Positions 27,876 to 31,484 of a stretch of DNA of 50,374 nt are shown in pieces (positions within the stretch are counted from its first letter, which is position 1; every line of letters begins with the position of its first letter). The position numbers and the translations under genes are program-made. The notes under the pieces are model-generated. The model saw only the letters and a program-made list of their open reading frames with translations. It was not told the origin of the DNA and did no database searches. Origin of the DNA: Chitinophaga sp. (GTDB taxonomy: Bacteria; Bacteroidota; Bacteroidia; Chitinophagales; Chitinophagaceae). The DNA lies in NCBI RefSeq assembly GCF_036569125.1, contig NZ_DATCRF010000365.1, positions 1 through 50,374 on the forward strand, in the 5' to 3' direction.

Positions 27876-27911
27876 AGTTGTTTTTATCAAAAAATTAGTT
27901 TCATCTTTGCA
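27876..27911 (+). promoter_or_regulatory. Bacteroidota sigmaA-type promoter for the tRNA operon
   Basis: -7 element catctttgc (27902-27910, near the TAnnTTTG consensus) with ttg about 20 nt upstream, in an AT-rich region. Confidence 0.6.
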
Positions 27912-27939: not shown

Positions 27940-28032
27940 ATGTCACGCATACAGTTACATACAAACGCAAAGAAAGGCTTCGGTCCCATGGAGGATTGCA
28001 GCGTTTGCGGGGCATGTTATGCTACAGAATAG
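27940..28032 (+). CDS. Leader peptide 1 (30 aa, MSRIQLHTNAKKGFGPMEDCSVCGACYATE)
   Basis: ATG preceded by an A-rich initiation context (aaataaaaaac); 3' part is complementary to the 5' arm of the following terminator. Confidence 0.65.
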   Translation: MSRIQLHTNAKKGFGPMEDCSVCGACYATE

Positions 28033-28058
28033 TTGAAACAACGAATTCGATATAACAC

Positions 28059-28090
28059 AAGCCCCCGACGCGTCGGGGGCTTTTTATTTT
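28059..28090 (+). terminator. Attenuator terminator 1
   Basis: Perfect palindrome gcccccgacgcgtcgggggc followed by tttttatttt. Confidence 0.88.
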
Positions 28091-28105
28091 ACATAAAACA
28101 TAAAC

Positions 28106-28270
28106 ATGCAAATGCATTCACTACACATAACAGGTATACGATTTAGAGGTATGAATGATCAATGGTTATCACTCATAAGCCCTTGTCATGTGTATAGTGA
28201 TCAGCAGAAGAATGATAAACATATTGAACGCACCCCGTCAAATAAACGACCTTGGTATGATCGCACATAA
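28106..28270 (+). CDS. Leader peptide 2 (54 aa, MQMHSLHITGIRFRGMNDQWLSLISPCHVYSDQQKNDKHIERTPSNKRPWYDRT)
   Basis: A-rich initiation context (aaaacataaac-ATG), open frame filling the space between two terminators; acgacc near its end is complementary to terminator 2. Confidence 0.6.
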   Translation: MQMHSLHITGIRFRGMNDQWLSLISPCHVYSDQQKNDKHIERTPSNKRPWYDRT

Positions 28271-28288
28271 GTAACCCTGTGTGCAGTT

Positions 28289-28325
28289 AAAAAGCCCGGT
28301 CGTACTAAGCGGCCGGGCTTTTTTT
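28289..28325 (+). terminator. Attenuator terminator 2, immediately before the first tRNA
   Basis: gcccggtcg-tactaag-cggccgggc followed by T7. Confidence 0.88.
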
Positions 28326-28327
28326 AT

Positions 28328-28399
28328 GGTTCGTTGGTGTAATGGTTAACATCTCAGATTGTCGATCTGCAGCTACGGGTTCGATTCCCGTACGAACCG
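28328..28399 (+). tRNA. tRNA-Asp(GTC)
   Basis: Acceptor ggttcgt/acgaacc, anticodon loop ttGTCga, T-loop ttcgatt, discriminator G. Confidence 0.88.
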
Positions 28400-28422
28400 C
28401 TGTGCGCTTATACGAAAGTAAC

Positions 28423-28495
28423 TGGCCTGTAGCTCAATGGTAAGAGCAGTTGCCTTATACGCAGAAGGTTACTGGTTCAAACCCAGTCAGGCCAA
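28423..28495 (+). tRNA. tRNA-Ile(TAT)
   Basis: Acceptor tggcctg/caggcca, D stem gctc/gagc, loop ctTATac, T-loop ttcaaac, discriminator A; weak anticodon stem. Confidence 0.8.
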
Positions 28496-28505
28496 CAAAA
28501 CAAAT

Positions 28506-28577
28506 GGTGACTTGGCGCAATGGTAGCGCACTACGCTGATACCGTAACGGTTGATAGTTCGAATCTATCAGTCACCA
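28506..28577 (+). tRNA. tRNA-Ile(GAT)
   Basis: Acceptor ggtgact/agtcacc, loop ctGATac, T arm gatag-ttcgaat-ctatc. Confidence 0.88.
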
Positions 28578-28582
28578 CAACT

Positions 28583-28654
28583 TGCTGGATAGTGTAATGG
28601 TCAACACATCACATTTTGGCTGTGATAGTTTCAGTTCGATTCTGAATCCGGCAA
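28583..28654 (+). tRNA. tRNA-Gln(TTG)
   Basis: Acceptor tgctgga/tccggca (U1-A72), stem tcaca/tgtga, loop ttTTGgc. Confidence 0.88.
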
Positions 28655-28664
28655 CTGAATAAAT

Positions 28665-28736
28665 GGCGTCCATAGTTTAACGGCAAAACATCCGGTTGTG
28701 GGCCGGAAGTTGAGGGTTCGAATCCCCAGGGACGCC
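28665..28736 (+). tRNA. tRNA-His(GTG)
   Basis: G-1/C73 identity, stem tccgg/ccgga, loop ttGTGgg; mismatches at the acceptor/T-stem junction. Confidence 0.8.
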
Positions 28737-28746
28737 CACACAAAAT

Positions 28747-28821
28747 TGGTTCGTAACTCAATTGGTTCAGAGTACCGGTCTTTTACACCGGGAGTTGTGA
28801 GTTCGAGTCTCACCGGGCCAA
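28747..28821 (+). tRNA. tRNA-Lys(TTT)
   Basis: Acceptor tggttcg/cgggcca, stem ccggt/accgg, loop ctTTTac, T arm gtgag/ctcac. Confidence 0.88.
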
Positions 28822-28887
28822 CAATGGTGTGAGTGCTATTTATCCCTTACCACTGGTTAGGACAGTGGTGCAAGCTCACACCAGTAC

Positions 28888-28959
28888 GGACAGATAGCTT
28901 AATGGTAAAGCAGCGGCCTGTTAAGCCGCAAGATGAAAGTTCGAATCTTTCTCTGTCCG
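28888..28959 (+). tRNA. tRNA-Asn(GTT)
   Basis: Acceptor ggacaga/tctgtcc, stem gcggc/gccgc, loop ctGTTaa, discriminator G. Confidence 0.9.
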
Positions 28960-29008
28960 CAAAAGAGAATGTGAGTGGCTAAAATTTTTACCACTCACAT
29001 TAGTAAAA

Positions 29009-29080
29009 GGTTGGGTAGCTCCAATGGTAGAGCAGCGGTTTGAAGCATCGCCTGTGCAGGTTCGAATCCTGCCCCATCCA
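29009..29080 (+). tRNA. tRNA-Phe(GAA)
   Basis: Acceptor ggttggg/cccatcc (one U-U), loop ttGAAgc, T arm gcagg/cctgc. Confidence 0.85.
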
Positions 29081-29103
29081 CGGACCAATAAAAACAGAAT
29101 GCC

Positions 29104-29589
29104 ATGGACCACAAAAGACAATGGAGACGGTTAAACGGCGCCATTGTAAAAACACCGATCGAAGATGAAATAAGGGATGTGCTGGTACAAGCCATCCACA
29201 ATGGTTACACCATGAAGGTTTGTATAGGTACAGACAGTCAGGTGAAAGGCCGCACCACGGAGTTTGCTACCGTGATCGTATTTATCCGCAAGGGAAAAGG
29301 CGGTTTCATGTACATACACAATGAAACCACGGTACGCAAAATGTCTGTAAGAGAAAGGATGCTGGCGGAAGTAACCAAAAGTATTGAAGTAGCCTACGAA
29401 TTATGTGGCCTGTTCACTACTTACAATGTAGATATGGAAGTGCACGCGGATATTAACACACAACCCAACTTTAAAAGTAACGATGCTTTAAAGGAAGCAA
29501 TGGGTTATATCACCGGGATGGGTTTTGCCTTTAAAGCCAAGCCGCATGCCTTTGCCAGCAGCAGCTGTGCAGATAAAGCCGTGCATTGA
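29104..29589 (+). CDS. Ribonuclease H-like YkuK (DUF458) family protein
   Basis: VCIGTDSQ, ERMLAEV..SIEVA, EVHADIN, KP.AFASSSCAD motifs with acidic catalytic-type residues. Confidence 0.85.
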   Translation: MDHKRQWRRLNGAIVKTPIEDEIRDVLVQAIHNGYTMKVCIGTDSQVKGRTTEFATVIVFIRKGKGGFMYIHNETTVRKMSVRERMLAEVTKSIEVAYELCGLFTTYNVDMEVHADINTQPNFKSNDALKEAMGYITGMGFAFKAKPHAFASSSCADKAVH

Positions 29590-29954
29590 TAAGGCGATCT
29601 GGCATAAAAGATAGCAATGTGACCAGGCATCGGAACAGCTCTCGCTATTTGCACACTGCTTTAATGAGCCGTCAGAAACTGAAAGGTGGGTATGGAAATA
29701 ACTGCGGGATAGCTGGCAGTGCTCCATATTTGGATAAGCTGGCAAAGCTGTAAAGTGTGAGTATAAAAATGTGACTGCGGACAGCTGTCAAAACAAATTA
29801 TAAATTATAACTGATGGAAAGCATCAGTAAAAGATCTTCCCCTGTTAGGGGAAGTGGATACTCTTCTAACCGGCAACCCGGGCGTGGTCTTAGAAGCCCC
29901 GCAGTGCAGCGGCTGTAGCTTGCTGTATGCTGTTGTTCGTGTTTGGCAGTATCC

Positions 29955-30089
29955 CGACCTGTGGGTTGAAGGTTCGATTCCTTCACGGTTTAAAGCACCG
30001 TTAGCTCAATTGGTTAGAGCAACAGTTGTGTATGTGGGTTCAAATCCCACTCCTTTTTAGAAAGGATAGCATAATGGTTATGCAACAGC
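29955..30089 (+). ncRNA. Two tandem circularly permuted tRNA-like domains (YrlA/Y-RNA-like)
   Basis: Order is T-arm, loop-closed acceptor hairpin, D-arm, twice: gaagg-ttcgatt-ccttc / acggt..accgt / gctc-aattggtta-gagc and gtggg-ttcaaat-cccac / tccttt..aaagga / gcat-aatggtt-atgc. Confidence 0.7.
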
Positions 30090-30128
30090 CCGGAAGCGCA
30101 CTCCTTCCCTAAAAAGTGCACCAACAAA

Positions 30129-30345: not shown

Positions 30346-31446
30346 ATGAAAAGGGTAACAATTAACGCCTACCAGGTTGGTTTGGTGTTTAAAAATGGCG
30401 TGTACAAACGCATGCTGGCAGAAGGCAGCTACTGGCTGATGCCTGTTGAAACCGTGCGCGTATACGACACTACCGCGCCGTTTGAAACAGCTTTTGAGCT
30501 TAACATCCTGTTGCAGGATGAAGCGCTGGCAGCAAGGCTGCATGTAGTAGAAGTAAAGGAAGATGAAATAGTGCTGCAATATGAGAACGGCTTGCTGAAG
30601 CAGGTGCTCACTACGGGCCGTCACGTTTTCTGGAAAGGCATTGTACAATATAAATTTGTACGCGCCGGTTTGAACAAGGTGCAGATCACGGAAAACCTTG
30701 ACCGTACCACGCTGCAGCACCGGCTGGTGGCGCCTTATGTGCGCACCTTCAGTGTGGAAGCCTACGAGCGCGCAGTATTGTTTATTGATGGTAAGTATGC
30801 ACAAACACTGGCAGGTGGTGTATACTACTTCTGGAGGAACCACATTCCCATTCTTATGGGCAAGGTAGATACCCGGCAGCTGCAAACGGAGCTGAACGGC
30901 CAGGAAATACTAACCAAAGACAAAGCCGCTTTGCGTATCAATGCCTGGGCGCAGTACCGGGTTACTGATATTGAAAAAGCTATGCTGCAGCACAAGGAGT
31001 ACGATAAGCAATTGTACATCCTGTTCCAGCTGGCGCTGCGTGAATACGTTGCCGGTTTGGGTTTGGATGAGCTGCTGGAAAAGAAAGATACCCTGGCGCC
31101 CTTCATTCTGCAGTCAGTAAGCGATAAAGCTGCCGGCCTGGGTGTGCAGGTAACCGGCTTCGGTATCCGCGATATTATACTGCCGGGTGAAATGAAGGAT
31201 ATCATGAACCAGGTGCTGGTGGCGGAAAAGAAAGCGCAGGCCAACACCATTATGCGCCGGGAAGAAACTGCCAGCACGCGTAGCTTGCTGAACACTGCAA
31301 AGCTGATGGAAGATAACCCGATGCTGTGGAAGCTGAAAGAAATGGAATATGTGGAAAAGATAGCAGAGAAGATCAGCAGCATTAGTGTAAGTGGTAACGG
31401 CGTATTGGTGGATCAGCTGCGGCAGATCTTTACGCCTCAAAAATAG
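30346..31446 (+). CDS. Slipin (SPFH/band-7) family protein
   Basis: GQEILTKDKAALRIN, QLALREYV, GIRDIILPGEMK, AEKKAQAN..RREETASTRSLLNTAKLM, KLKEME. Confidence 0.92.
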   Translation: MKRVTINAYQVGLVFKNGVYKRMLAEGSYWLMPVETVRVYDTTAPFETAFELNILLQDEALAARLHVVEVKEDEIVLQYENGLLKQVLTTGRHVFWKGIVQYKFVRAGLNKVQITENLDRTTLQHRLVAPYVRTFSVEAYERAVLFIDGKYAQTLAGGVYYFWRNHIPILMGKVDTRQLQTELNGQEILTKDKAALRINAWAQYRVTDIEKAMLQHKEYDKQLYILFQLALREYVAGLGLDELLEKKDTLAPFILQSVSDKAAGLGVQVTGFGIRDIILPGEMKDIMNQVLVAEKKAQANTIMRREETASTRSLLNTAKLMEDNPMLWKLKEMEYVEKIAEKISSISVSGNGVLVDQLRQIFTPQK

Positions 31447-31484
31447 ACGGGTTGGTTGCAAAAGGCAGCCAACCCGTTTTGTTG
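31446..31484 (+). terminator. Intrinsic terminator ending the tRNA/slipin operon
   Basis: acgggttggttgc-aaaag-gcagccaacccgt followed by tttgtt. Confidence 0.8.

Follow-up and report, generated by a model that had tools for sequence, protein, structure and literature searches.

Organization of the locus and its relatives

The window, that is, the whole stretch of 50,374 nucleotides of Chitinophaga sp. DNA analyzed here, carries on its plus strand two short leader ORFs ahead of a tRNA array and two protein genes. The region begins with a predicted Bacteroidota-type promoter (TTG ... CATCTTTG; positions 27878 to 27909), which we take to be of the -33/-7 type and in which CA(T/C)CTTTG is nearly invariant in a 49-sequence alignment (A3). 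This -7 box (27902 to 27909), present in nearly all homologues, departs from the TAnnTTTG consensus. Leader ORF 1 (27940 to 28032; 30 amino acids, with L-H-I/T at codons 6 to 8) contains the antiterminator 1 strand GCGGGGC (28007 to 28013), the predicted partners of which are the 5' arm of terminator 1 or the start-codon region, and a predicted intrinsic terminator (terminator 1; 28059 to 28085) follows. Leader ORF 2 (28106 to 28270; 54 amino acids), for which relatives have a homologous ORF, includes an early motif, ATA-CGA-TTT (28136 to 28144; family form CAT-A(T/A)A-CGA-TTT, usually at codons 7 to 10), and the antiterminator 2 strand ACGACC (28246 to 28251; codons Arg48-Pro49). Its stop codon lies in a small hairpin within the antiterminator (28263 to 28284; GCACATA at 28263 to 28269 and TGTGTGC at 28278 to 28284). 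The second predicted intrinsic terminator (terminator 2; 28289 to 28325) consists of a stem (28294 to 28318), with GGTCGT at 28298 to 28303, and seven T residues (28319 to 28325). Neither leader peptide gave a domain match in Pfam.

The array (28328 to 29081) comprises eight tRNA genes, Asp(GUC), Ile(UAU), Ile(GAU), Gln(UUG), His(GUG), Lys(UUU), Asn(GUU), and Phe(GAA), and thus serves the amino acids D, I, Q, H, K, N, and F. Hairpins of about tRNA-arm size at 28826 to 28885 and 28968 to 29001 between the tRNAs are possibly decayed tRNA genes or processing signals. The array is followed by genes for an RNase H-like protein (PF04308, which we take to be YkuK; 29104 to 29589) and an SPFH/Band-7 protein (30346 to 31446), and a terminator lies after the latter (31445 to 31479). 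Between the two genes is a cluster of tRNA-like remnants (29800 to 30110), in which tRNA-like or Y-RNA-like sequence at 29960 to 30050 scores 31.4 bits as tRNA and 39 bits as YrlA, below the YrlA cut-off of 69; the locus is without a Ro60 gene.

This layout (promoter, leader 1 with its terminator, leader 2 with its terminator, 0 to 18 tRNAs, and then YkuK, SPFH, RtcB, or Ro60 genes) was conserved in the Chitinophagaceae, and nearly all named carriers were Chitinophagaceae or unclassified Bacteroidota bins. A leader-1 profile, which differently sequenced look-alike architectures would escape, hit 4 of 16 genomes of the family and none of 284 others in the phylum. No second copy was detected in the window's own genome (89.5% complete) by this profile or by a scan for promoter, ORF, and terminator. 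Our discovery set comprised 86 loci, of which 64 had terminator 2; the leader-2 homologous ORF was present in 63 of these, and removal of 7 near-duplicates left 56 (three start codons in this set were placed by hand). A further 121 loci were gathered using the leader-1/terminator-1 pattern, which is blind to leader 2 and arrays. Among them, 31 were too short, 16 were missed by the terminator-2 pattern (12 with variant terminators and 4 with leader 1 alone), and 74 were parsed, every one of which had the leader-2 ORF; 41 of the parsed loci were unlike the discovery set, and 25 of these were testable. The conservation of the leader ORF in frame ahead of the operon is thereby established.

YkuK-like and SPFH genes were each found in 38 of 63 loci, AAA ATPase genes in 17, RtcB genes in 11, and Ro60 genes in 2. 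The ATPase is a recurrent protein of 357 amino acids (L097:1586-2656 and homologues), an unannotated protein of about 245 amino acids occurs in the same operons (L107:2550-3290; 4 loci), and an AAA-like gene precedes rtcB on another contig (C620) of the window's own genome. The downstream partners thus include RNA-repair genes (RtcB, Ro60/TROVE, and DRB0094 RNA ligase), which we count in favor of the tRNA-tuned attenuator discussed below. Second copies of the Asp, Gln(UUG), His, Lys, and Phe tRNAs exist elsewhere in the genome, as does TilS; with RtcB and Ro60 in homologous loci, the array shows the redundant tRNAs beside RNA-repair genes that mark a translational-stress L-array of the trn operon type. 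Besides, the array tRNAs differ from the housekeeping copies in their anticodon loops (G37 in Asp and Phe, C38 in both Ile and in Lys, and G38 in His), and altered loops occur across homologous arrays (e.g., TT.GA in 25 of 33 Asp and CT.AC in 36 of 43 Ile[UAU] tRNAs). Judged from these loops, such tRNAs may be modification-independent or nuclease-evading substitutes.

Both leaders were kept without an adjacent tRNA in 11 of 99 loci, and in 4 loci (L166, L198, L177, and L178) leader 1 alone stood ahead of protein genes; thus, the element does not need tRNAs. In L166, leader 1 was confirmed to lead directly into a DRB0094 RNA ligase gene, and L198 is similar by eye. Leader-1-only loci also precede YkuK-like and AAA ATPase genes, and L177 and L178 are two copies 1.36 kb apart. 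In another locus (L032), several tandem degenerate tRNA-Asp-like units lie immediately 3' of terminator 2, upstream of the first tRNA.

Pairing of the antiterminators and terminators

A preliminary description of this DNA had proposed that ACGACC, beginning 20 nt after a run of nine codons in leader 2, can pair with GGTCGT in terminator 2, extended by the GCACATA/TGTGTGC hairpin, and all of these elements are present exactly as described. Indeed, in a transcript ending at 28306, ACGACC was predicted to fold onto GGUCGU around the small hairpin. Among 58 aligned loci, 94.5% of the 290 cells in the five-pair core of antiterminator 2 were paired, with 5 double changes, and the corresponding values for terminator 2 were 98.3% and 18, which establishes covariation of the pairing. 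None of 500 shuffles reached 94.5%, a test that relatedness among the loci inflates, and slid partners gave only 2 to 48%. The antiterminator and terminator are mutually exclusive, and the antiterminator strand lies inside the ORF: automatic placement put CGA-CC in register with the ORF in 52 of 56 loci, and the usual distance to the stop was 7 codons. The variant forms CAA-CC, GGA-CC, and TGG-CC change with the terminator arm and not with the peptide, which indicates that the RNA pairing, and not an Arg-Pro dipeptide, is conserved. Leader 1 is laid out like leader 2, and the predicted pairing probability of antiterminator 1 exceeded 0.5 in 93% of 90 truncated transcripts.

At equilibrium in the complete transcript, terminator 2 was more stable than the antiterminator, the difference being 8.2 kcal/mol in the window and, as a median, 5.8 kcal/mol in 35 loci, implying that read-through would be kinetic, with the antiterminator forming first. 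As to an anti-antiterminator (1:2) helix of the his/trp kind, one is predicted for leader 1 in 68% of 90 loci, whereas for leader 2 the folding energy was unchanged by ribosome position upstream. Four RNA libraries, read at the contig level with small shares, contained two contigs spanning terminator 1 (27944 to 28179 and 27973 to 28229), of a kind from which strand, ends, and transcription are not readable. Searches of Rfam gave no leader family at cut-off and no T-box match at the gathering threshold or at an E value of ≤5, and a T-box riboswitch was ruled out accordingly; weak leader matches proved to be terminator look-alikes. Attenuation of some kind is highly probable, and we favor two ribosome-coupled attenuators in series.

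Leader codons and array content

Codons 32 to 40 of leader 2 (28199 to 28225) read DQQKNDKHI, and every residue belongs to the array set, exactly as the preliminary description had noted. It had further proposed that this run and three ATA codons, matching tRNA-Ile(UAU), form an attenuator that senses loss of the tRNAs that the operon resupplies. Shuffling the codons of the leader produced a run of at least nine such codons in 0.45% of cases; among GC-matched sequences, such a run was present in 3 of 744 coding windows and 8 of 618 small ORFs (0.4 to 1.3% across the three backgrounds), so that it is mildly unusual before allowing for its post hoc choice. In contrast, the overall share of array codons in leader 2 was ordinary (23 of 54; P = 0.16 versus small ORFs), as was the presence of at least three ATA codons (at codons 8, 11, and 24; P = 0.16 to 0.26). 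Although the ORF itself is kept in homologous arrays, a run of at least nine codons for D, I, Q, H, K, N, and F was found, among 99 de-duplicated loci, in that of the window alone; it also occurs in two near-sisters (L031, which is 92% identical to the window, and L230) that had been set aside as near-duplicates.

We then compared, for each locus, the leader codons for the amino acids of its own array with those for the arrays of other loci. In the discovery set, the excess was 0.039 in 40 loci (versus 0.010 ± 0.007 within clades) and 0.040 in the 22 loci outside the window's own genus (versus -0.001 ± 0.009), with a P value of 0.09 in the own genus. The 25 new loci replicated this result, with an excess of 0.056 against a within-clade null of 0.010 ± 0.009. 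When 76 loci were pooled, the signal was largely confined to the reading frame (z = 6.7 in frame 0, 2.3 in +1, -0.3 in +2, and 0.3 on the reverse strand), although the +1 frame was weakly positive in some tests (z = 2.2 to 2.8). YkuK and SPFH proteins, used as controls, gave z values of 0.6 and 1.3 (0.6 and -0.7 for their N-terminal parts), whereas leader 1 matched the arrays with a z value of 5.2. In 88 loci, the signal persisted under a null that preserved both array size and tRNA frequency (z = 6.4) and after removal of A%, GC%, size, clade, and length (z = 5.9). Omission of any one of nine amino acids, or of S, D, and E together, did not abolish it, nor did the choice of start codon matter. 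Furthermore, on a FastTree phylogeny of YkuK and SPFH (79 loci; supports unassessed), 26 of 38 independent pairs agreed with the prediction, 9 went against it, and 3 were tied (P = 0.003), the off-frame and protein controls being null, and the nearest pairs differing in at least 3 amino acids gave 20 versus 3 of 24. Nine further loci with variant terminators were above expectation in 5 cases, below in 3, and equal in 1. Covariation between leader and array is thus established across the family; the effect is small, about 3 to 5 points of codon share. Synonymous non-cognate codons for Ser and Gly also rise with array content, so that the link is established only at the level of amino acids. The expectation that leader codons follow the array was thus borne out in a diffuse form, though not through the run.

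Counted back from the stop codon, the covariation in 88 loci was strongest over codons -16 to -11 (z = 5.85), with another peak over codons -34 to -29 (z = 4.0). About four codons separate the end of the former peak from the antiterminator strand, a clearance that reflects the footprint of a ribosome, so that a ribosome stalled any further along would cover the strand. The counterpart of this peak in the window (codons 39 to 44, HIERTP; 28220 to 28237) has 2 of 6 codons served by the array and shares only 2 codons with the nine-codon run. We give very little weight to a model in which this run, together with ATA for tRNA-Ile(UAU), serves as the control region proper, in the manner of his or trp leaders. 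The run is the longest among 23 loci with arrays serving 5 to 8 amino acids and ends close to the antiterminator, whereas its restriction to one lineage and the ordinary ATA count speak against such a region, as does the longest-run statistic, with P values of 0.02 to 0.04 in the new loci, 0.04 to 0.10 under clade control, and 0.42 in the discovery loci outside the own genus. Any ATA codon was about equally frequent with and without tRNA-Ile(UAU) (24 of 25 and 28 of 31 loci; P = 0.62); an early ATA codon was more frequent with it (20 of 25 versus 14 of 31; P = 0.013), an association likely confounded by genus, and the pooled ATA share was not significantly related to it within clades. Thus, the three ATA codons and the tRNA exist as described, but they do not track each other within clades. 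The covariation signal is diffuse, drawing on many codons in the two leaders, and the nine-codon run is best read as one lineage's instance of a sensor distributed in this way.

It might be argued that the tandem attenuators sense only general translation stress, such as antibiotics or ribosome damage, that the leader sequence is otherwise free, and that shared history or unmodelled composition produced the covariation incidentally. The leader peptides are indeed poorly conserved and range in length from 23 to 70 codons, 3' frameshifts are tolerated in leader 1, and loci lacking tRNAs retain their leaders; in the window's own genus (29 loci), no significant covariation was found (z = 1.2 raw and -0.6 residualized). 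A cyanobacterial tRNA array is induced by many ribosome-targeting drugs (PMC8421152). Drift, however, would not be expected to give the replication, the frame specificity, the null results for YkuK and SPFH, the tree pairs, or the peak adjacent to the antiterminator, and we regard this explanation as unlikely.

Still less probable is that arrest at the early motifs (L-H-I at codons 6 to 8 of leader 1 and H-K/I-R-F at codons 7 to 10 of leader 2), peptide specific or due to rare codons, constitutes the real sensor, e.g., of exit-tunnel antibiotics or of AUA/CGA decoding. Of the 38 well-scoring loci (out of 56), 35 have the leader-2 motif in frame; its distance from the start is fixed (6 codons in 20 of 35), and it has TTT in 28 of 35 and CGA in 22 of 35, though the genome uses CGA for 868 of its 70,372 Arg codons. 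In leader 1, 41 of 53 ORFs placed automatically have His as codon 7, the Ile codon at position 8 shows synonymous variation (ATT in 15, ATA in 13, and ATC in 6), and the start region was predicted to pair with the leader's own antiterminator strand with a probability above 0.5 in 68% of 90 complete transcripts. The leader-2 motif, however, varies at second codon positions (ATA/AAA and CGA/CAA) and hardly at third positions, so that it looks like a nucleotide constraint, and the covariation peak lies far downstream of it. Such arrest is compatible with a tRNA-tuned attenuator, and the two are not exclusive. The early motif at 28136 to 28144 (CATAAACGATTT in the family) resembles the antiterminator strand region at 28243 to 28251 (CATAAACGACC), a likeness in sequence that possibly reflects duplication or a second, weaker pairing partner.

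A probable tRNA-tuned attenuator and its place among known systems

We infer that leader 2 is a ribosome-coupled transcription attenuator with codon content tuned to shortage of the tRNAs that the operon resupplies, a reading to which we assign a probability of about 0.6. This inference extends to translation of the ORFs, coupling, termination, the trigger, and the direction of co-evolution. Either leaders adapting to arrays or the loss of unsensed tRNAs would imply functional coupling. A ribosome keeping pace would cover ACGACC and melt the stop-codon hairpin, and terminator 2 would form. If a missing or cut tRNA delayed the ribosome at any point more than about 4 codons short of Arg48, ACGACC would be left free to capture the emerging GGUCGU, and with the antiterminators formed, transcription would continue into the tRNAs, YkuK, and SPFH. 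Fresh tRNA would then speed leader translation and shut the operon, as negative feedback. Having two leaders in series would amount to an AND filter, and the operon would also be induced whenever antibiotics or ribosome damage stall translation in general. Thus, a shortage of tRNAs that stalls ribosomes likely prompts the cell to turn on its spare set. The attenuator originally proposed is partly supported: the feature is real, and the conserved architecture, compensatory pairing, and covariation favor it at the family level, though not through the nine-codon run, which is not a conserved unit.

In classical trp, his, thr, and pheM leaders, the leader ORF carries control codons, and the antiterminator downstream of them is the alternative to an intrinsic terminator. 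The leaders described here likewise place an ORF upstream of an antiterminator/terminator switch; trp and leu leader attenuators are also treated elsewhere (PMC10274678). Unlike classical leaders, the present ones lack conserved tandem control codons of the his/trp type, match no Rfam leader family at its cut-off, and precede tRNA genes instead of genes for biosynthetic enzymes or a synthetase. For the trn operon, a study of TrcR reportedly identified that protein as the repressor. In Anabaena, a redundant tRNA array is co-regulated with rtcB, control acting through promoter direct repeats, and L-arrays have been reported in Bacteroidetes (PMC8421152). The output is a tRNA array in both cases, whereas attenuation is predicted here, and the string "attenuat" is absent from that article (PMC8421152).

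The proposed mechanism resembles that of the mycobacterial whiB7 uORF, for which efficient translation leads to the terminator and stalling to the antiterminator, the amino acids of the uORF set which starvations induce, and feedback runs through the regulated output (alanine/aspC) (PMC10274678). That uORF and the present leaders are both variable and longish, dependent on composition, and predicted or described to choose between terminator and antiterminator by translation, with feedback. A variable uORF biased toward the regulated output was likewise found here at the family level, though not significantly in the own genus. Unlike whiB7, the present system has two leaders in series and tRNA and RNA-repair genes as its output, and leader composition follows not one amino acid but a multi-tRNA set that varies. 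The Salmonella mgtCBR leader also contains two leader ORFs, sensing ATP and proline (charged tRNA), with protein genes as output (PMC3641672); in contrast, both leaders here show the same array-matching trend. By analogy, the elements are best read as tandem whiB7-like stall sensors that would be tuned to the tRNAs resupplied. Our literature search, which took in few subscription papers, found no leader-peptide attenuator controlling tRNA genes.

More tentatively, and at odds that we place somewhat below even, the family may possess an autoregulatory circuit in which tandem leaders poll many tRNAs and switch on substitute tRNAs, many with altered anticodon loops, together with RNA ligases, while leader codons and array co-evolve gene by gene. 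It would amount to a tRNA-damage alarm, e.g., against anticodon nucleases, that works by attenuation alone. If the tRNA-tuned attenuator is true, attenuation would extend from amino acid supply to the tRNA pool itself, and the tRNA arrays of Bacteroidota would gain a regulator. Leader codons would then predict which tRNA losses switch a given array on, and with about 100 natural leader/array variants on hand, the purpose of the arrays would become testable.
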